Shown one piece after another: positions 18,786 to 33,738 of a stretch of 64,000 nt of DNA (positions within the stretch are counted from its first letter, which is position 1; each line of letters opens with the position of its first letter). The notes beneath the pieces were generated by a model. That model saw nothing but the letters and a program-made list of their open reading frames with translations. It made no database searches and was not told the origin of the DNA. The translations under genes and the position numbers were made by a program. The stretch comes from Podarcis cretensis. Lineage: Eukaryota. The DNA lies in contig OX638164.1 in NCBI GenBank assembly GCA_951804945.1, positions 29,512,001-29,576,000 on the forward strand. Reading direction: 5' to 3'.

Positions 18786-19226
18786 ATGTCGGGCCGCGGG
18801 AAAACCGGGGGCGGCAAGGCTCGGGCCAAGGCGAAGTCGCGCTCGTCGCGGGCCGGGCTGCAATTCCCGGTGGGGCGCGTGCACCGGCTGCTGCGGCGCG
18901 GCCACTACGCGGAGCGGGTCGGGGCCGGGGCGCCCGTCTACCTCGCCGCGGTGCTGGAGTACCTGACTGCCGAGATCCTGGAGCTGGCGGGCAACGCGGC
19001 GCGGGACAACCGCAAGACGCGCATCGTACCTCGCCACGTGCAGCTGGCCGTGCGCAACGACGAGGAGCTCAGCCGCCTCCTGGGCCGCGTCACCATCGCG
19101 CAGGGCGGCGTCCTGCCCAACATCCCCGCCGCCCTTCTGCCCCGCAAGGCCGGCGCTGGAGGAGGAGGAGCGGCGAGCGGAGCGGCGCCGAGGAAGAAAG
19201 CCACCCAGGCCTCCCAGGAATACTAG
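18786..19226 (+). CDS. H2AX: Histone H2A.X, intronless, 146 aa
   Basis: Full H2A fold ([17 protein letters not shown]...[21 protein letters not shown]...[11 protein letters not shown]) with the C-terminal SQEY motif. Lies between DPAGT1 and HMBS, the conserved position. Confidence 0.98.
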
Positions 19227-19453
19227 GCGGGCGAGCAGCAGCATCCTCTGGACGGGACTCCGGTAGCAGCCGGCGAAGGATGGACACGAGGACGGATCAC
19301 GCAACCCCCCTGTTTTCCTTGGGGTTTGGTTTGGGACAAGGGTCAGGCGCCAGGACTGAGCGCATGGTTGCCTGGCCCACAAACGGATTGCTGAACTGGG
19401 TGGGGATCCCGTTGAAATTACGTTGCAGGGATCGCAGTGTTGGCTTTTGTTTT

Positions 19454-20870: not shown

Positions 20871-23800
20871 TCAGGCATCGTTGAGCTGTCGGGCCACGTT
20901 GAGGATGTGCTTTGCCCCTCTGCTCAGGAGGAGCTCAGCCACCTGAATGCCTAACTTCTCTGCAGCCACTTGAGCAGACTGAGAGAAATTCTTTGCAGTG
21001 ATGCCAACATGCTGGATGTCATCGTTGGGGCCATCTTCGTTCTGAAAAGTAAAAGTAAGATGCAAAATCCCTTAGCCAGCAATAGGACATTTGAGGGTTA
21101 GAGGCAGCAATTCAAGATTCACATTTATTGAAGGATAGTGGGGGATGCTGTGGTCTAAACCACTGAGCCTAGGCCTTGCCGATCGGAAGGTCGGTGGTTC
21201 AAATCCCCGCGATGGGGTGAGCTCCTGGTGCTCGGTCCCAGCTCCTGCCAACCTAGCAGTTCAAAAGCACATCAAAGTGCAAATAGATAAATAGGTACCA
21301 CTCCAGCGGGAAGGTAAACAGCATTTTCGTGTGCTGCTCTGGTTTCGCCAGAAGCGGCTTAGTCATGCTGACCACATGACCCGGAAAAACTTGTGGACAA
21401 ACGCCAGCTCTGTCAGCCAGTAAAGCGAGATGAGTGCCGCAACCCCACAGTCATTCACGACTGGACTTAACTGTCAGGGGTCCTTTTAGTGAGCCTCCAA
21501 ATTTAACATTGGTTTTGTATCCTGCAGTAAAATTAGAGGAGGGAAAACAACCCATATGAACGAGATGCTACGATTGTACAGCTGGTCTTTTAATGGAGGA
21601 GGCTGAACAAGTGTGACTAACACTATTGGCCAAAACATCTATGAGCTTGTTAGCACATTACAATAAGCCATGGTTCAGTGTGAATGAGGAGCATGCTACT
21701 GCATACTTTGCAATAGTTCCTGCTTCACTCCTGTGAAGCAAACCAGGAAGTTGCACTTAAGCTTTGCTTCCTGTTAACACTGAAATCCAGGATTAGGGTC
21801 TGTTGCTGCCTTACATACAGTGGCTTGTTTGGGAGCAACAGGCCACAGTCTCTGCTTTGGATATAATAGGAAACAAAGCTTAAATAAGGTGTGGGGAAGC
21901 TTTGTCCCTCCAGATATTACTGAACTACAATTTCCATCAGTCTGAACAAGCAGGACCCATTGCTAGGAATGATGGGAAGTGTAGTTCAGCAACAGCCAAA
22001 AGCTCCCCACTTTGCTTAGATGTAGTTTTATTGGGTTTTTTCTCTCTCATGTCATGGGAGGAGCCAAGCAGAAAGGTTTTCCCCTGTGTGGAAGCCTAGA
22101 AAATGTGCTGTTTTGCAATACAGTAGCGGGTACCTCATGTGGAAAATAATTCATGCTTGCTTGCATGGTCTCACGTAGGCTCTCTGATCCATCAAGGCTG
22201 TAGACTGCTCCAGTCAAATATAACTAGGGAAAATAAAGAGAAAATGTCAACAGCACCGCACACAGCTCTCCCTTTGGAGGTGGTGCAGGAAAACCAAGGG
22301 ATAGGCAGTGTGTGACATCTTCTACAAGAGTCTGGGATTCAGCATTAAGTCACCTTTTTAAAAAGGAAGGGTCCTAGAAGGACAGGAAGGAATTATCAGG
22401 CTGGAAGCAGCAACTTAAACTTTTATGTGAACTACCAAATCTTCCAGGATGAGTGCTGAGACTGATCCAGTCAAAAGGGAAATGAATGTCTGAAGTGGGG
22501 GGATTGCCAACTCAGCATTTTTAAAGTGGTTTATAAATGCTTTTTAATAATAACTATCAGCAACAGCCAATAGGATGATGGGGATTGGAATCAAACATCT
22601 GGAGAACCACAGATTCCCCATCTCTGGCCAGCAAACACCTAGTCGGTTGGTAATAACCATACATTATCTTCTGGTGATCCTTACAACAACCCTATAGAGT
22701 AGGCCAGTGTTGTTATCCTTGTACTGCAGGTGGAAGGCCAAGAAGGTGGGTCACATGTCATGAATGTGAGTTCGCTGGTTCAAGGGTTCTTTGCTCCATC
22801 TCAGTCAGGGAACACTTCCCTTCATACCAAGCAGGGCTATTGCATCCAGCACAGGTCTCTCCCTCCACCAACTGCTTTCAATGCTGGGAGCGGCCCACAA
22901 ACCATTGCTAAGAGAGACCCAGCCTGGCAGCTGGCTGGAAAAAACAAGGCCTATGGTATTCTGAATTGTCATTACCTGGAAGTCCTTCAGCACGGTGTTC
23001 ACTGCCACAGGGACACTGCAGCCACCTTCCTGGAATGGAAAATGTTAGGGAGATGAACGACGCTGCTGCCAAGCCTCCCTCTTCATTTTACTTTTAATTA
23101 GCATAGCACACCACTTTTCCATATTACTAAACAAGGCGGTTCACAGCAACAAAATATACAACAAAGAACACACCTTGTCATAACCTGATCCAATTAAAAA
23201 AGCCATAACATGGCATAACTTTAATGAATGACATATCAAATAAAGTAATATTCAATAATCTATTTGACTATAATGGTACACAATAAAATAACTCAAAACA
23301 TCAACCAATGATGACTAAACAAATTCACTCTTAACAATTGCAATAAACTATCAATAATAACCGCAAGTCACAATGCATACCATGGGAAAGGATCAAACTG
23401 AGAAACGCAACTCAGAACTATTTTTTAAAAAAAAAATATCCCTGAACTCCTCTTCTCCCTGGGAAGGAAGCACCCCACTGCCCTGAGCCCCACATAAGCA
23501 GGTGGCTGCTGTGGCCTCCGATCAAGCACTTCCTGAAACCTACCAAGTGCTTCATGAAGGCCCTCTCTGCAATGCAGCGCAGCACCGTCTCACCGTCGTG
23601 CAGGACGGACACCATATCGAGGATCTCCTGGTCCCTGGCTCTCACCTCCACTGCTAGGGCTCCCTGGAGAAAGGAAGAGGAGCAGGGAAAGAGGCCCTTC
23701 TCAGCTTCTAGAACAGCCTAGTGGCTACGCAGCCCCCACAGCGTTCAAAGCCTCTGCTCTGCAACAACCAGGGTCAGCAGTCAGATAACAACAGGAGCAG

Positions 23801-26800
23801 AGTCTCTCTACTCTGTGAAGCAGGCTTGAGCTTGAGATGGAGACATATGACCACCAAAGCATCCACTACCCCTTTTCCCCACAAGCCCCTGCTAAAAACT
23901 GCTTTGAGTGGGTGGGGGGGGGGGGAAGCCAGCCATACTGACCCATAAGAAAAATTTCTAAATCCATATTATGCCAATGCCTTTATTAGGTCAACCAAAA
24001 TGTCACAATATAGTGCAAGCTTTTAAGTTTCTGTGTTTTCTTTACTTCAGCCCAATGAATATTTCTGGGGGACTCAAAAGCTGGCACAATATTTTGTGAC
24101 ATTCTGGTTGGCTTTATAAAGTAATTGCCCTGTGATGGATTTTGGCATTTTTGTTGCTGGGATTTCCGAGAGACAAAAGAACATGTCTTCAAGGATTCCC
24201 ACAATGCATACATTTCACCCACTTTTGGACAAGGGGCAAGCAAGGCATGCAGTGAAAGAGAGCTTAGCAACATTTTTAAATTTGGGGAAAGCCACTTTTA
24301 CAGTTTACAGTTCATGCACTTTACAGTACATGGCCAGGATTGATTTGGGGATGTAGGCCAACAAATTCTAGAGGGCCACAGGTTAGCCATACCTGCACAA
24401 ATGGGAGGATGCAGAAGCTGGTACCCACCAGGGCAAGCGGCGCAGCCTCGGAGCACCAAGGCCATTTAACCTTCCAGCTTTGGGATTCACACCAGGTGAG
24501 AGTTTGCTCTCTAGAGAGAATTTGTTGGAAGGTGTGCATAGCCTGACTTTGGGGTGCTCATTTGAGGGCGAGGAGCAGTTGGAGAAAGAGCGAAAGGCAC
24601 CCTCAAGAAGAAGGGGTGTGTTGGGGAGGCTCAGCTGGGCCAGAACGGAGAGCACATCACATACCTGCCCAACTGCGTACAAGCAGTCTGCGGGGCTCAG
24701 GACCTGGAGTGGAGGGAAGCAGAACGAGGGTTGGTGATGCTCAGAACAAAGGCGGAGCAAAATATTTTATTTATTTTAAATTTGTATTCAGCCCTATACA
24801 CCTCAGGGCGTTTCACAAATTCATTCAGTTTATATATCCCGAAGGAATGCAGACATCAGTGAGCATCTCAAGAACTGAAGACACAAGGAGGAGAAGCTCC
24901 CTGGGCACGATGAAGAGGCTGCGGCGGCGGGGGGGGGGGGGGATGACGACGACACAACCTCCATCCCAAACTCTTCTGCCCTACTTACTTGACCAATGCG
25001 GCTGTCCCAGCCCATCCGCCTGAGGCCAGCCGCTGCCAGGACAATGGCGCTGAAATCCTCCTTCTCATCCAGCTTCTTCAAGCGAGTGTTCAAATTTCCC
25101 CTCTACAAGAAGGATTAAGGGAAAACCACAGAGATCCCTGGTTGGATGGCCCATGGCCTACACTTCCAGAGCTGGCCACCAGGGAGGGTGTTCTAACACC
25201 ACAGTCCCTCTCTGCAGGGGAGAAGGTGGCTCAAGACCTTAGCTCCTCTGCCAGGCCTCCGGGCTGCATCTCAGCACAATGCCTGGCTAGGCCCCGATTC
25301 AAAGCCAAGCCAGGGATGTGGGGCCTTGAAAAAGTTCATATTCAATATAACAAAAGCTGCATATTCAAAGGAATGACCACATTCTCCACTAGGAAATTCA
25401 ACCTCCATGAGGTGTCCTTTTCGCACATGGTGGCAAGATTTGAGTGCAAAGGCTAAGCATGGTGAGACGGGGGAGGGGTACAGAGAGGGGGCATCACTGG
25501 TTTTTCAAGGGCCAGTCTAAGTCAAGGGGTCATTTTCAAAGGATACAATATCCCTGAATTCCAGGTGAGGGAACTTTCTCTTCAGCTGAGCTGCCCGGCG
25601 AAGTGAGCTGGTCCCAATCACGCTGCCAGAGAGCCAAAAGGAAAACAGTGTCAAAGAAGAGTCTGGACTGGCCAGCCTCACCCGTCTGAGCAGAGTTAGG
25701 AACAGTCCCCCCGGACACCTCTGCACAAACATTGTCTACACGGGACCATGTGCTGTTATTTCCAGGCAGCAAAGTGTCAACTCTGGCCAAGACCTCAGGC
25801 AGGCAGGGACCCCTCTCAGCACTGCTACCCAAGAGGTGTTGAAGCTGGGGCAAAATGCTAATTTCAGCCCTTCCTGCACACCAGATGGAACCCAAGGAAG
25901 GAACAAGTGGAACTCACCTCTTCTCAGGGAGGCTGTGGAGGCTCTTGCCTGCATGCTTAGGGTGGAAGACGACCGCATCATATGGACTCTCTCTCCTGCA
26001 ACGGACAGACAGGGTTGCCTTTTAGGGAGCAGGTCAGCAGCAGCAGTTGCCTCCCAAGTTTCTTGCAAAGAGACAGCGGGAGGCTACATGACCTGGACTT
26101 TTGTCTGTTCACAGCCAAGGCCACCACTTGGCCTAAGGCAGTGGCCAGTTGAGATGGGTTAAAGAAGGCGTTACCCATCTGATGCTCTGGAAGTTAGGTG
26201 GTTTGGTGGGCACGCCCACTTCCACAGGGAACCAACAGCTGACGTGGAAATGGGAAGTCGGATGCCTGGCCAGGCCAAACTTTGATGGACCAAGAGCCAG
26301 AGCGTTGAGCACCAGTCAGGCAGAAGGAAGCAGAGGAGCCCAAACTCACTTGCAAATTGCGCCAATGGTGAAGCCAGGTGGGAGGGATGTGGGCAGGTCC
26401 TTCAGGGAGTGAACCACCAAGTCAACCCTGGAAGGGAAGAAATAAGCTGGTTATGGGTGTGCCAAACCTATGCGCCCAGGATGGGCAGAGAGAGCAATTA
26501 TGAAGCATAAGACCTCAGCGCAGATGCCTGCTTGGCTATGAAGCTTTGCTGGGTGGGCCTGGGCATGTCAGCCTCAATGTGGCCTACTGCTCAGGATTGC
26601 TGTGACACAGTTTTAAACACCAGACCCTGATGTTTCAGAAAGAGCAGGAAAAACACCCGTTATTTTACGGAAGGCACCAGAGCTCTCTCTTCCCAGTTAT
26701 GCGCCATGACTAGGTTCCCCCTCCCCACAATTGCTGGAAACGCTTTCGCTCAAGAGAAGACTTCCTGGCTCTGGAAGAATCCATTGCCTACAAAGGACAT

Positions 26801-29800
26801 AGACTCCTGCTCAAAGCAAAAGCACCAGCACCAAGGGCACCACCAGGCATTGCCTGCCAAGGAGAGCTTTCTCCTGCACTTCCCAGCCAAACAGAACTTA
26901 CTCATTTCTTTCCAGTGCATTTTCCAGTTCCTTCGTAAATAGGCTTTTCTCGCCAATCTAAATAGGAAAAGAGCATGTTACAACCTGGGCTGCTTTTTCT
27001 ATCCACTGCTGGTTGCGTCTTGAGCCCATGGAGCATACGGCTTCTTACCTTGGACAGAGCTGTGTCCAGGATCTTGTCACCTGTGGTTGACATGGCAACT
27101 ATTCAGAGAGAGAGAGAGGAAGGAAAGAAGGAAGAGGGAAGATCAGGAAGGATGACAAGCACCAGTAGGACATGAGCTACAACAAGGGTGAGCAATGTGT
27201 GGACTTCCTAGATGCTCACTGCTTTAGTAGGGTAGGATACAAACTGGCGCCAGGAAAAAACACCCCTCTTATCCTAGGCCTTTGGCTACTTAAATAATCT
27301 ATGGCCTTTTAAACTGTGTGGGTGGGGGATATTGTTTATGTTTGCTACTATTTAACGTGTGGCATAACTGATAATGTGTTGGGTGTAGGACCTGGGAGAC
27401 CAGGGTTCGAATTCCCACTCAGCCATGAAGCTCACTGGGTATCTCTTAGTCTAACCTACCTCACAGGGCTGTTGAGAGGATGAAATGGGGAGGAGAACTA
27501 TGTACAATGCCTTGAGCTCATTGGAAGGGGAAAAAGGCATACAGTGGTGCCTCGCAAGACGAAATTAATCCGTTCCGCGAGTCTCTTCGTCTAGCGGTTT
27601 TTTCGTCTTGTGAAGCAAGCCCATTGACGGTTTAGCGGATTAGCGCTATTAGCGGCTTAGCGGATAAGCAGATAAGCGGCTTAGCGGCTTAGAAAAAGGG
27701 GAGGGAAAGGGGAAAAAAACCGCAGGAACTCGCAAGACATTTTCGTCTTGCGAAGCAAGCCCATAGGAAATTTGGTTTGCGAAGCACCTCCAAAACGGAA
27801 AACCCTTTCGTCTAGTGGGTTTTCCGTCTTGCGAGGCATTCGTCTTGCGGGGCACCATTGTATAAATGAAATAAATAAATAAATAAATAAATAAATAAAT
27901 GTTATGTATTTTGGGATTTTACAAGGTAAGCCACTCTGTGAGTCTTGAAGGAATGGTCATACAGAAATTAAATTAATTAATAATTAATAATATTAATAAT
28001 AATAATACAAAGCTAGGTGCCACACAAGCCCATCCTCTCCATGCACCAGGTCAGAAAAGCTCAGCACTCTGTCTGTGCACCTGAGGCTGCTCTTACCCAG
28101 CACCTGGATGGAGCTCCTGTGTTGGCTTGCTCTCTCCCCATCCACTACTTGGCCAATACCTAATTCCCAGGCTTCCTGCCTCACACACTCACCAATCTCA
28201 AAGCAGAGGTGAGGGTGGCGCTCCTGCAGCATCTGAACCACGCTGTCCGTTTGGATCCGGGCGAGCTGCAATTTCAGAGAGAAGGAAGGCAAAGTCAATC
28301 AGTGTGCCCTACTTATGACCCAAGAGGCGCAGGCGGCAAGTGTGCCCAACGCACCTGCTGTCAGAGGAAGACATGTGCGCAGATTCTTGCTCCGATATGC
28401 TGTTCCCACAACAGCCCAGAAGACATGAGACTTCAAGTCCCACTTCCTATGCACTTCACTCTCATCGGTTTTGGGTCCGGTTCATGTCTGTGATCTGCTC
28501 TGCCCCCCCTCCCCCCAGCTTTGGAGGCCCACAGAGAAAAAGCCAGACATGAAGAGAGCCAACCTGGCTTGAGCCAGTCAGAGAATGAAAAGGAAGCAAA
28601 GGCAGCAGCGCAGCTGATGTGTGCTCAGCAAACCTCCCAGAATGAAGCTCTGCAGAAATACCATTCATGGACGCCAAGTGTTGCAGGATTCCGGACAGGC
28701 AAAGGGAAGGACTTCTTCACACAGAGCGTAATTAAATTTCAGGGTTTGCTCCCACAAGACATAGAGATGGTCATCAATTTCAGGGGCTATAAAAGGGGGT
28801 GAAAGGCTATCAATGGAATATTAGCTACAATGGCCGTGTTGTGCATCCAGCGTTGGTGGTTGTGTGCCTTTGAATATCAGTTGCTGAGAATTGCAATAGT
28901 GAAAAGATTGCTGCTGGACTCAGGTCCTTCTTGTGGGTTTCCAAGAGGCATGTGGTTGGCCACTGTGAGAACCGGATACTGGACTAGATGGGTCTTTGAC
29001 GTGACCCGGCTGCAGGGCAATTCTTATGTTCTGAGAGAAGGAGTGGAGACCCACTTCTGGCGCCCAGGACAGGGCTTCTAGGGAAAAGGAGATGCCGCCC
29101 TGAGGTGCCGCCCCATCCTAGGCCCCTGTTCCAAACAGGCTTTCTGGGTTTATTCCTGAGCTGCCACCAGCCTCAACAACAGGAGGCAGATGGGAGATTA
29201 GCTCTCCACCGCAAGGGTGGAGCATTATCTTTCATTACAAGTCTGCCCCTCCCAGTCTTGGCTTTTGGGCGTACTTCTTTGCTCCTGCTAGGGCGGCCCA
29301 TGGGGAAATCTTTGCATCCTCCTGGCAAAAGAAAGGTCAGGGGAATTGATAGTTGCTCAACACCACCAAAGCAATTCAGCTGGAGAAGTATGGATTAATT
29401 GCCAAGTGGATACAAATGAAAAGTTTTAAGGTCGTTCTTCAATAAGCAGCAGCGAAGTAGCACAGCTGACAAAACACTTAAGGCAGTATAATGCAAATGA
29501 CGTAACAGCCTTACAAACGAAACCCTGTGGCTGCTAGCAAATTACAGCAATAGTAGCAAAGGGACAAAGTATTGAGGAGCAGCACTGAGTGAAATATAAT
29601 TCAGAAAGATGCACATTTGGGAATACAGCTCCTGTGATACTTAGCCTAATATGAATTTGGAATTTGCTACTGCTGAAGGGGAGGGCAAGGATAGTTCCCA
29701 GAATATGTGAGTTCCTGCAAAGCAGCCATTAAGAGCTCCGGCAGCAGTGGGGGACTCTAAGTCTAAGCTCTGCTTGATACAGAAAACCCAGCAAACATCT

Positions 29801-32800
29801 CTAAGAAAGGACTGTCCAGCCTCTGCTCCCAGTGAGGCAATACAGGAAACTGCATTATCCCAAGACAAACCATTGCTCCCTCTAGCTCAGTTCGGTCAGC
29901 ACTGACTAGCAGCCATTCTTCCAGGGTTTCAGGCAGGGAGTCTTCTTTCACAGCCCTACCTGGAGATGCCGGGGATTGAACCACAAGGGCTCCACCACTG
30001 AGCTCTGTCCCTTCCCAAGGGAGAGTCCACCATGGTTTCGGTGTCAGGACTGCTCTTGCCTTTAAGAAGTCTCCAAATGCTCATCTGAGTTCTCCCCTCC
30101 TGGGATATAAGCCCCTAGGATCTAGTCCTGTCCTCTGGCACAACAGAGGATAGTTCTTCGTCCTTTTTTTAAGGCATTTTTATATATTGCTATTATCCAC
30201 CCCTATAACTCAGGCCTTTAAGAATACACTTCATTCTATGACTTGCTCTCTTCAGCACCAGCCGTCTTTCCCTGCCTTCCTCTGTTCCAACCTGGTTACT
30301 AGGAAAGCAACAGAAAATGCCCTGTTGTCCCAATGCAAATCCATTCACCAGTCAATGCTCAGTCCTGTTTGTACGAACACTTTGCAAGAAGCAGACCCAG
30401 GAAAAGCAGCAGGCAAGCAAGAGAACGGTAAAGACACAAGAACCTCACCTGGCTTTTCCTTGTTCCCACGCGGATAGTCTCTTTCTTCAAGCCATTCTTC
30501 TCCTGTGAAGAAATGTCTCCAATTACTCCAAAGAGGGAGGGTTATTATGGTGGCAATTCCACAATCTCCCCGCAAAACCCTACACCAAGAGGAAGCTTGC
30601 ACCAGCCAAGCCTTTCCTCGCAAAGGGGCTGCCAAGCAGGGTGGGACAGTTAAGCCATGGAAGTGGACACAGAAGGCATCCCAGGAAGCCCCACACTGGA
30701 ACTTTCCTGGGCAGACACCTTCTGCAATGTTCGCTACATTAAAAGGAACAGCCCTAAAGGATAGCTGGGCAACGTGCAATTAGATACCCATCCCTCTTGC
30801 CTGCCTCCCTTGTGTCAGATCTAAAATTCTACGCTTCTCTGGGCAGGGGTCCGCCTTTCCCTTTGTTATGCTGTAAAGCACCATAACATCGTTGGCACAA
30901 CCACAAAGAACTATTACTAATGTCGTTTTTATTGCCTGACCTGACCAGTCCTAGCCCAGCAACCCTTGACAGGCTTTAGGGCAAAGAACACATGTGTCAA
31001 AGACCTGAAAGAAGCATAGGTTATTCAGTAGCACAACTGGCCCCAAGGGGCAGTCATCTGCTTCCCAAGAGTCCCCCAAAGACCAGGCCGCGCAACGCAG
31101 GTAAGCAGCACATGGAACGAGCAAGGGCCCTGCAGGAAAAGGTGCCTGCAGAGCCATACAGGGCACAGGACAAGATAGCACTGAGACAAACATTATCAGT
31201 TAAGAGCCTATCAAGTCCTAATTGCAGATAGAAGTATTCCTCAGTAGGGTCTGTCTGTTGCGGTAAAGTTTCACCCCAAAATATGTCATAATACACACAG
31301 CTGAAAAGAGAGATTGTGTATGCATGAGTGTGGGTAAGAGAGGCAGGGAGAGAAGTATGAAGTCCTGGACAATAACCCAGGGCCAGAAAATCTTCAGACC
31401 TGTCAAAATGGCTGTTAAGATTTGGAAATATTTCCCCAGACCTGCAAAGAGGCTTGGAGAGACATATGCCTCTTACCTGACTGTCCTGCAGCACCACCTT
31501 TGCCATCTCAACAGAGGTTTGCAACCCAGGACCCAGTGAAGAGGAGAAGAAAGATGTCTTTGCTAGAGGGGAGAGGAAGACCTGCTGCCTTGCTCTGTCA
31601 GCGTCTAATCAAGGGAGTCTCTCCTTGCAAACTAGCCCCAACCTGGCAGCAGAGATAAGGCAGAGAAGGGGAAAGGGCGTTCAAGGGGGGTGGGGAGAAG
31701 GAAGGAACTGAGCCTGGAGGGAACTGCAGCTGCAGGGGCTGCTTGCAAGGAACTGTCCGGGTTTTGCACAGAAAGAAATTGTTCTGGGAAAGACAGGCAG
31801 CAGAAGACAATCTCCCAGAGCAAAGCAATTGACAAAGGGGCCATTTGCACAAGTGAACAAGGGACATTTCAACCACTTATTTGCAATATAGGGCAGGGGG
31901 AGGGTGGCGGCGCAGATGGGGAGATACAATCAAACTGCATGGCAAACAACTATAATCTCAATGGATCAGAATGCAGGAAGCTATCATCCTGAGAACCTCC
32001 TTGCTTCCGCCCATGGTGGCCAGGGCTATCTGTGCCATCCACAAAGTTCTGCAGCAAGGAAGTGCACAAGCTGGGCTGATATTTACTTTCTAGGACATCT
32101 CCCAAGAGAATGCGGCTCTTCTTAGGGTGGTGGCTGTGGAAAGGAGTACATAAAGACAAGAAATGGGATGCAGCGAGATAGGAAAAAACACAGGAAAGTG
32201 GCACAGGTAGGCAGTAGAGCTAAAAATGGGCAGTAGATATCAATAGTTCATAGGAGAGATTGGTAGTCACAAGGTACTGAAGCCCCATGTGTGACTTCTG
32301 GAAGTCAACCCCAAATCATCAGTTCCTTTCAGTCTTCATCAAACATAGCCATGAGCACTAGCTATTTAGCTTCAGGGAAGAAAAAGAGAGATACCATCAG
32401 GGTGCTGAAAGCAGCAGTTTCTGTGTTTGTAGGGCAATTATGCAGCCAAGGGGGACAGAAAGAGGTGCTTAGTGTGAAGAGAGAAGAGAATTTGTTTGAA
32501 TCTGGGACTGAAAACACAGAAACAGGCAAGCTGTGTAGGTGTCCACCATACAGTATCACCCAAAAGGCTCAGGCCCAACAGCCCAAAATCCAGGCAAAGG
32601 CTCGGGTTTGGAAGCTAATATAACAGTCTCCCCATGGGAAGGCTATGGGATGTATTCCCAGCGGAACTTTGAAAGGGTATGTGAAAGTGTGAGTGTGCAC
32701 GCAGAAACTAGAAAAACAGCTTTATGAAGCACCCTATAGCAGAGGGGAATGCAAGAGGGCACCTGAAAGCAGCAAACCCACACTTCTCTTCGCCGCCACC

Positions 32801-33620
32801 GCACTCTGGCTCACCTTGGCTGCCAGTAGAAACTGCCTGGAGATATCTGTACAGTGTACTACCTAACAGGGCAAAGGTGTGTCCTACCAAGCCACCCTTC
32901 GGATTAGGCAAGAGTGCCTTGCCACACAGAGGCAGAGCTCAAGTTGCACAACGTTGTGCAAGAAACAAGAGGCATCTGATTTTGGCAGGAGCACATTCTA
33001 GAAATGCAACCTGCCTCCCTTGACCGGCAAAGGGCAAAATAGCCCTGGGAGAAACACCAGCCTCTCCCAATGTTTCTCTGCAGATATAAAGCGGATTACA
33101 GGGATACTAACATGAAACACTTTGGGCACTCGAATGAGGCCAGTGCCCTGTTGTTGTTCTTGTTACTGTTGTTATCATAAACAAAATTGTGTGTGTGTGT
33201 GTGTATATAAATCGAGTTTCATAAAAATCAAACTAGCACTACCATTTAACAACTATATTCCCCCTTCCTAAGGAAAGTAGCACTGGAGGACACACAGGTG
33301 TAGGAAAAGAGAGATACCACCCAAGTAAGTCGGGGGGTGGGGAGGAGTAGCAGATAGGCAGACGTGGTCGGAGACAACCCCCGTCCCCGGGCCCATCAGC
33401 GGGGGCTGAACTCATTTGCATCTCATTAAAGACCCCCGCGACGCACGTGAGGTCACCACCATGAACAGAGGTCACCTCGCGACGTCCTCCGCCATTGGCT
33501 GAGCCCCGGGAAGCCCCGCCCCTCCGGCCCCTCTCTCTCCCTCCCCCTCCCCAAAGCGAGCGAAGAGCCGGTCAAGGCAGCGGCGGAGAGGCTCACCGAG
33601 GCGGGCGGCGAGCTGGTCAT
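20871..33620 (-). CDS. HMBS: Hydroxymethylbilane synthase (porphobilinogen deaminase), housekeeping isoform, 14 coding exons, 358 aa
   Basis: Exons (minus strand) 33597-33620, 30449-30502, 28193-28265, 27049-27098, 26902-26957, 26350-26427, 25918-25995, 25547-25622, 24989-25102, 24665-24703, 23544-23663, 22976-23029, 22134-22223, 20871-21041; total 1077 nt. Motifs: [64 protein letters not shown] (cofactor Cys). The 24-nt first exon is less certain than the rest. Confidence 0.96.
21142..21487 (+). mobile_element. Sauria SINE in the last intron of HMBS
   Basis: GCTGTGGTCTAAACCACTGAGCCTAGG...CAACCTAGCAGTTCAAAAGCAC...CAGGGGTCCTTTTA. Confidence 0.88.
25103..25546 (-). other. U12-type GT-AG intron in HMBS
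   Basis: 5' site ATT|GTATCCTTTTG; branch-like TTTCCCTTAAT about 11 nt before the acceptor AG. Confidence 0.88.
27542..27860. mobile_element. Tigger-like MITE nested in the tail of an older SINE (about 27355-27900)
   Basis: TIR CAGTGGTGCCTCGCAAGACGAA / TTCGTCTTGCGGGGCACCATTG; TA TSD; internal (TTAGCGGC)-like tandem units. Confidence 0.85.
27868..27900. repeat. (AAAT)n SINE-tail microsatellite
   Basis: Read directly. Confidence 0.85.
28680..29030 (+). mobile_element. Degenerate CR1-like 3' fragment
   Basis: TTCCGGACAGGCAAAGGGAAGGACTTCTTCACACAGAGCGTAATTAAA (FRT.K.K.FFTQ.VI), followed by a ...GGACTAGATGG... tail. Confidence 0.55.
31477..31506 (-). CDS. HMBS: Candidate alternative (erythroid-type) first coding exon of [14 protein letters not shown]
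   Basis: gagATGG Kozak context, 10 codons, strong phase-0 donor CAG|GTAAGA in frame with exon 30449-30502. GATA and CACCC sites lie 150-190 nt upstream. Confidence 0.7.
31643..31695 (-). promoter_or_regulatory. Candidate erythroid promoter of HMBS (GATA1/TAL1 composite and KLF1 CACCC box)
   Basis: CTG-N7-AGATAA at 31643-31658; CCCCACCCC (minus strand) at 31687-31695. Confidence 0.65.
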
Positions 33621-33738
33621 GCCGCTGGTGGCGCCGAGCAGCGAAGGGGGCCGGCAGGCAGGCGGGGCGAGGGCTGGAGGGGGTCCCGCTCTGGGTCAAC
33701 TAGGCGCTGCCGGTTCCATCGCCACTCCGGGGAGCCAC

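Follow-up and report, generated by a model that had tools for sequence, protein, structure and literature searches.

The HMBS Locus

The HMBS gene lies on the minus strand of the window, which denotes here the whole 64-kb stretch of Podarcis cretensis DNA that was analysed, and it is flanked by VPS11 and a histone H2A-type gene. The VPS11 exons (48700–36600, minus, the same strand as HMBS) are located just upstream, and the histone H2A-type gene, read by eye near 18800–19230, occupies the strand opposite to HMBS. In human, the gene order is VPS11-HMBS-H2AX. The encoded protein aligns with the solved human HMBS over residues 10–360 (E 2e-173) and retains the active-site residues, which identifies it as HMBS, or porphobilinogen deaminase; its final exon is 100% identical to that of a Podarcis lilfordi protein. 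All matches found in a genome search (8/8) fall in the window, indicating a single HMBS locus. In a tree of 35 proteins, mammals, amphibians, sauropsids and ray-finned fishes formed clades, with both hmbsa and hmbsb among the ray-finned fishes. Since these clades were kept, the proteins can be regarded as orthologues, with some deep branches poorly supported or wrongly placed (mammals fall outside a group of amphibians and sauropsids, 88/73). Judged from synteny and the tree, the gene is an orthologue of HMBS.

The coding part of the housekeeping exon 1 (33597..33620, minus strand) encodes MTSSPPAS, the N-terminus of proteins P0073 and P0076. Its ATG is at 33620, the donor GTGAGC follows 33597, and the exon lies in a GC-rich island. 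A 7-codon upstream open reading frame in strong context (MEPAAPS, stop; 33696..33719, minus) is predicted from the sequence of the housekeeping 5' leader. The shared exon (30449..30502, minus), corresponding to mammalian exon 3, consists of 18 codons and includes the equivalents of human Arg26 and Ser28; that it contains no Met, as an earlier interpretation of this DNA made from the letters (the sequence-only reading) had pointed out, is confirmed. The first in-frame internal Met belongs to the next exon (28193..28265, minus), where it stands at about 28232, past the residues equivalent to Arg26, Ser28 and Gln34. The remaining coding exons occupy 20871..27100 on the minus strand, with the stop codon at 20873–20871. 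The two isoforms encoded here are 360 and 358 amino acids long.

Exon 1E and Its Upstream Motifs

A second first exon, designated 1E, is located within intron 1. Its coding part (31477..31506, minus) comprises 10 codons. The start ATG (31506–31504) is placed in the context GAGATGG, with G at both -3 and +4, and the phase 0 donor, CAG/GTAAGA, comes directly after 31477. This is the sole ATG in the 3,094-nt intron that remains open in phase 0 to a GT[AG]AG donor within 30 codons. The ATG, the donor, the ten-codon exon and the motifs upstream, all described in the sequence-only reading, were found at their places when the minus-strand sequence was read.

The candidate second promoter (31586..31875, minus) contains two predicted sites. 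One is a CACCC (KLF1-type) box, CCCCACCCC, at 31687..31695 on the minus strand. The other is CTG-N7-AGATAA, a GATA site with a half E-box, at 31643..31658 on the plus strand, in reverse to the gene; it is compatible with the gecko peptide LPYL discussed below. TTATCT/AGATAA occurs once in the 3,094-nt intron, precisely as this GATA site. Across both strands of the 64 kb, searches with the consensus sequences of the GATA and KLF motifs gave three occurrences of a KLF-type box followed by WGATAA within 62 bp, and two of CTG-N7-WGATAA. A pattern search of intron 1 for the NF-E2/AP-1 site TGA[GC]TCA gave no match; an NF-E2 site is present in the human erythroid HMBS promoter. The sequence-only reading needs correcting on two points: intron 1 has no NF-E2/AP-1 site, and the GATA motif proved to be also part of a dispersed repeat.

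Splicing of Exon 1E

Splicing was assessed in contigs of 8 of 18 runs, guessed to be RNA, which come from related lizards and are unlabelled by tissue. The intron between exon 1E and the shared exon (30503..31476, minus) is 974 nt long with GT-AG borders. Its joint (30501–31476, ends CT..AC) is present in contigs of four of the eight runs (X5, X6, X12 and X13), representing three studies and three organism labels, so that the junction from 31477 to 30502 proposed earlier does occur in these tissue-unlabelled data. The housekeeping joint (3,094 nt; 33597 to 30502) was found in contigs of X10, X12 and X13. The 1E joint is unlisted in X1, X4, X8 and X10, and the housekeeping joint in X1, X4, X5, X6 and X8, contigs being evidence of presence and not of absence. 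The 1E junction contigs carry 26–28 letters on the shared-exon side, below the 31-letter bridging rule; such a short side is expected, because contigs break at a branch. A processed pseudogene was ruled out as the source of the junction, as the genome contains no second HMBS match.

In the 5' direction, the spliced contigs extend to at least 31633. Contigs of X5, X6, X8 and X12 stop at this position, where repeat copies branch, and contigs cannot show transcription starts. The spliced X13 contig extends to 32047, beyond the motifs, and the start site is therefore not fixed. A perfect Kozak sequence, GCCACCATGG, at 32014 (minus) opens an 18-codon reading frame that is out of frame with 1E and has GATA-like sites nearby at 32031 and 31986. 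The X13 contig includes this position, and the 32014 ATG may be an additional upstream start accompanied by an upstream open reading frame. The 30503–31476 intron is also kept in contigs of X8 and others, one of which is joined to spliced downstream exons. Retention of the matching HMBS intron is known for a human erythroid variant.

In the public models of Podarcis muralis, the 1E peptide belongs to isoform X1 and MTSSPPAS to isoform X2 (XP_028563799.1, XP_028563800.1), and Zootoca is alike. Exon 1E is thus already annotated in lacertid gene models, if only by pipeline. The sequence-only reading is thereby partly supported: 1E exists, is spliced and coding, and provides HMBS with an alternative N-terminus of 10 codons of its own, instead of a truncated one, where the erythroid exon lies in mammals.

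Conservation of Exon 1E Among Squamates

Conservation in relatives, proposed earlier as a check on the exon, is evident from the annotated proteins of at least 16 lizard species (counted by eye) that have 1E-type N-termini. Examples are MADVVLWPTQ in geckos, MANVVLLHNQ in monitors and MAKQGQ in Anolis. The counterpart in snakes is MAAE, found in 12 species (also counted by eye), and two snake read-through models place a proline-rich housekeeping start upstream of MAAE. In the snake proteins P0104 and P0208, about 200 nt is all that separates the two first exons, which form one read-through frame, with 1E reduced to four codons. The Hemicordylus protein P0091 has a third annotated N-terminus beyond the housekeeping and 1E types.

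Comparison of the window with four lacertid runs gave a divergence of 0.9–1.9% in the promoter/1E region versus 3.8–7.2% in the remaining intron, which points to constraint; the four comparisons have the window's branch in common and cannot be treated as independent. More distant evidence comes from the gecko Euleptes, whose model P0096 translates the DNA upstream of its own 1E into a 56-residue read-through peptide. When compared with the whole window on both strands, this peptide matched best at 31754–31575, colinearly and spanning the CACCC and GATA positions. The match involves 7 changes per 48 nt at 31736 and 10 per 48 nt at 31640, against a background of 25–26 ± 3. By this comparison, the GATA and CACCC motifs upstream of 1E are conserved.

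Two Coding First Exons Across Vertebrates

The shared exon was compared in retrieved proteins in which it is intact, counting sequences rather than species, with mammals sorted by hand. A Met at -3 of IRVGT is present in 67 of 67 mammal sequences, platypus and marsupials included, and in one of 226 non-mammal sequences, that of the frog Discoglossus; in two further non-mammals, a Met is found at another position of the exon. The 225 sequences without that Met include sharks, lungfish and ray-finned fishes. The sequence-only reading had assumed that the lizard lost the mammalian start Met, and this tally contradicts it. A search of metagenome contigs with a degenerate pattern for the end of the shared exon returned 0 matches.

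Pairs of N-termini are annotated in gharial, newt, axolotl, caecilian, frogs, lungfish, gar, bowfin, paddlefish, sturgeon and zebrafish. A MEN-type start occurs in sturgeon, gar, bowfin, caecilian, turtles, gharial and tuatara. All 25 tabulated species have two N-termini. The 1E-type has 10 codons in 16 of the 25 and the other type in 3 of the 25, the assignment being made by resemblance except in the window, the gecko and two snakes, which inflates the figure of 16. Lizard 1E peptides resemble those of non-squamates weakly (shuffle p 0.001–0.09), and part of the resemblance is due to the final Gln favoured by the donor. Two coding first exons are found from sturgeon to gharial and have been shown in zebrafish hmbsb (PMC4432979), so the arrangement is not the lizard novelty that it had been taken for. 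It is likely that two coding first exons are ancestral for bony vertebrates and that the truncated mammalian isoform is derived. In 37 bird proteins whose shared exon is intact, inspected by eye, no 1E-type start was seen, which may reflect either loss or poor assembly.

A hAT-like Element Carrying the GATA Core

The GATA site lies in a 69-bp core (31599..31667, minus), delimited by genome matches, that is common to the HMBS promoter and an amplified subfamily of MITEs (miniature inverted-repeat transposable elements). Among the matches listed, window positions 31675–31599 correspond to at least 37 other short genomic places at 88–97%, and at least two more places match over about 200 bp. Of 20 fetched copies, six are complete, with a length of 442–616 bp, short terminal inverted repeats and 8-bp target duplications with 0–2 mismatches. 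On the length of these duplications, the element presumably belongs to the hAT superfamily. The copy number is roughly estimated at 90–170 from two exact probes: one of 21 letters matched at 26 other places and one of 18 letters at 18, four of them common to both. No match to Rfam was obtained over the repeat core. Some copies of the family, to which the loci L001, L002 and L003–L050 belong, lie in long contigs of the runs guessed to be RNA.

One complete copy, L002, holds between its ends about 290 bp of the window (31875–31586), which is the whole stretch of the candidate second promoter. Copy L001 carries part of this segment, and most copies have only the core. Neither MITE terminus is found at HMBS within window positions 30400–33000. 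Homology of window positions 31585–31507 to the right end of the MITE was considered and rejected, as no alignment was obtained. Private changes number 13 in the window, 14 in L001 and 19 in L002, and this three-way comparison gives no direction. Since the gecko peptide matches upstream of the gecko's own 1E, the promoter would be older than the MITE, and capture from HMBS is the likely direction of transfer, the gecko evidence being one peptide and not DNA.

Among 30 copies picked by terminus, 13 keep the GATA site. The window core differs from the MITE majority at 2 of 69 positions, versus a mean of 5.7 in the 19 of these 30 copies that bear the core (Poisson p 0.08; 0.03 on 12 copies not pre-selected). 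This closeness is only suggestive of constraint on the core. Membership in a repeat leaves the motif unweakened, and reads mapping there need careful handling.

Capture of host sequences is known for non-autonomous DNA transposons, such as hAT MITEs and Pack-type elements. The present case, a likely capture, resembles them in its short element, terminal inverted repeats, 8-bp target duplication and internal host fragment. It is unlike the usual captures in that the fragment is a conserved vertebrate promoter and not a piece of an exon.

Relation to Known Alternative First Exons

For mammalian HMBS, also known as PBGD, intron 1 is described as harbouring a second promoter that contains GATA and CACC motifs (PMC3904948, PMC3463598). 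Translation of the erythroid form is reported to start from an internal Met, dropping 17 residues (PMC10577081, PMC4628764). The lizard exon is like mammalian erythroid exon 2 in having a candidate promoter in intron 1 and a first exon of its own spliced to a shared exon, so that one gene yields two isoforms. Unlike its mammalian counterpart, it codes for ten residues and has no NF-E2 site, whereas the mammalian gene combines a non-coding exon with a Met in the shared exon. Erythroid first exons driven from intron 1 are likewise found in other heme-pathway genes, namely ALAD/PBGS and UROS. The mammalian ALAD/PBGS and UROS alternatives alter the 5' UTR only and give identical proteins (PMC4628764, PMC13564367).

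The closest parallel in design is zebrafish hmbsb, in which, like in the lizard, two coding first exons (from promoters P1 and P2) are spliced to a common exon. The report describes two first exons, confirmed by 5'-RACE, each with a start codon and with different first ten residues (PMC4432979). P2 is coding and is reported to rise 5.8-fold in hypoxia, together with globin, alas2 and gata1a, and to be induced by cold; the text does not state which of the peptides corresponds to P2 (PMC4432979). Unlike lizard HMBS, hmbsb is a teleost duplicate, called hypoxia- and cold-inducible, and the available text does not link it to the exon structure of other vertebrates.

Proposed Mechanism and Alternative Explanations

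Taken together, it is probable that the single HMBS gene has a second first exon, 1E, which is spliced and coding and likely driven by a GATA1/KLF1 red-cell promoter, and that this layout is likely the ancestral one of bony vertebrates, which mammals left. The red-cell specificity of 1E is likely in view of its position and motifs. Transcription would be initiated by GATA1 and KLF1 immediately upstream of 1E in precursors of red cells, in the manner of the intron-1 promoters of mammals. The 1E transcript must itself supply an AUG, since none is present in the shared exon and the next in-frame Met lies past Arg26, Ser28 and Gln34, residues that are reported to matter for chain elongation (PMC10577081). 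Alignment with the E. coli enzyme begins only at residue 19, which places the ten 1E residues outside the conserved catalytic fold, and the peptide itself probably matters little. The ten-residue tail may therefore serve mainly as a translation start. Once a new Met had arisen in the shared exon of early mammals, the erythroid exon would have been free to turn non-coding, leaving an isoform that lacks 17 residues. A hAT-like MITE later probably captured about 290 bp of the 1E promoter in the lacertid lineage, with amplification of a derivative that retained the GATA core.

It is quite unlikely that 1E, although real and old, belongs to a promoter that is not red-cell specific but biased towards stress, hypoxia or otherwise a tissue. 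Such a role would agree with the description of zebrafish P2 as activated by hypoxia or cold rather than as erythroid, with the lack of an NF-E2 site in intron 1 and with the presence of the junction in half of the unlabelled runs. However, hypoxia induced the erythroid programme in the same zebrafish experiment, the position of 1E equals that of the mammalian erythroid promoter, and both GATA and CACCC are conserved. Blood is also present in most tissue samples, which counts against this explanation. Still less probable, indeed very unlikely, are separate origins of the coding second exons in fishes, amphibians, archelosaurs and squamates, with the lizard 1E being squamate-specific. The lizard MA.VVL..Q is unlike the MEN-type, the peptide similarity is weak, and the genomic comparison is confined to lacertids; yet length and splice partner are equal from sturgeon to tuatara, the MEN-type start recurs over the same range, in caecilian, turtles and gharial as well, and five of six lizard peptides score better than their shuffles (p<0.02).

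The repeat itself could suggest the opposite direction of transfer, in which a MITE inserted into the intron, donated the GATA/CACCC promoter and then lost both ends. The 88–97% identity of the core to the 37 short genomic matches listed and the intact GATA site in 13 of the 30 copies would fit such exaptation. It is nevertheless highly improbable: neither terminus is in the window, the longer segment occurs at only two other places, and the stretch is likewise present in the gecko, upstream of that species' 1E, the split being far older than copies that differ by about 8% from their majority. Geckos and lacertids separated about 190 million years ago. Finally, the polarity assumed at the outset, in which an ancestral internal Met was lost in lizards and a coding exon gained in compensation, is almost certainly wrong. 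The Met at the same position in Discoglossus and those elsewhere in the exon of two non-mammals are compatible with it, but 225 of 226 non-mammal sequences, from sharks to lungfish and ray-finned fishes, are without it.

Significance

The two-coding-exon design is already known from zebrafish, and 1E is in public models; what is added here is the ancestral-state reading and the probable capture of the promoter. A literature search, with most subscription journals outside its coverage, yielded no description of HMBS isoforms in reptiles, of a derived status for the mammalian Met or of the MITE. The textbook view is reversed in that the short mammalian red-cell HMBS looks derived, and its truncation thus needs no adaptive explanation. 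In agreement with this, the variant maps of the two human isoforms are reported to be nearly identical, with r = 0.96 (PMC10577081). The 1E junction and peptide offer an isoform-specific marker for reptile erythropoiesis.

The core, as a probable capture, would be an instance that can be dated of a regulatory motif moving from a host gene into a transposon, and its many copies form a natural test of whether the GATA site alone activates the element. A bolder proposal is that the MITE took the red-cell promoter of HMBS and spread its core to at least 100 lacertid sites, where certain copies have come to serve as enhancers or promoters in erythroid cells, the mammalian truncation being a by-product of one new Met; this is unlikely as a whole. 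If true, the spread of a promoter module by a MITE, rewiring other genes, would be the reverse of the usual exaptation.

Further Annotated Forms in Birds and Turtles

Many bird models (e.g., P0006, P0044 and P0222–P0225) begin inside the intron before the next exon and are without the strand bearing Arg26 and Ser28, probably as a result of assembly gaps. In turtles, proteins P0088, P0244–P0252 and P0317–P0330 are fusions of 700–760 amino acids that join the N-terminal half of VPS11 to HMBS, some of them entering through the MEN-type exon. These fusions recur in many annotations, as either a conserved read-through or a common annotation artefact.
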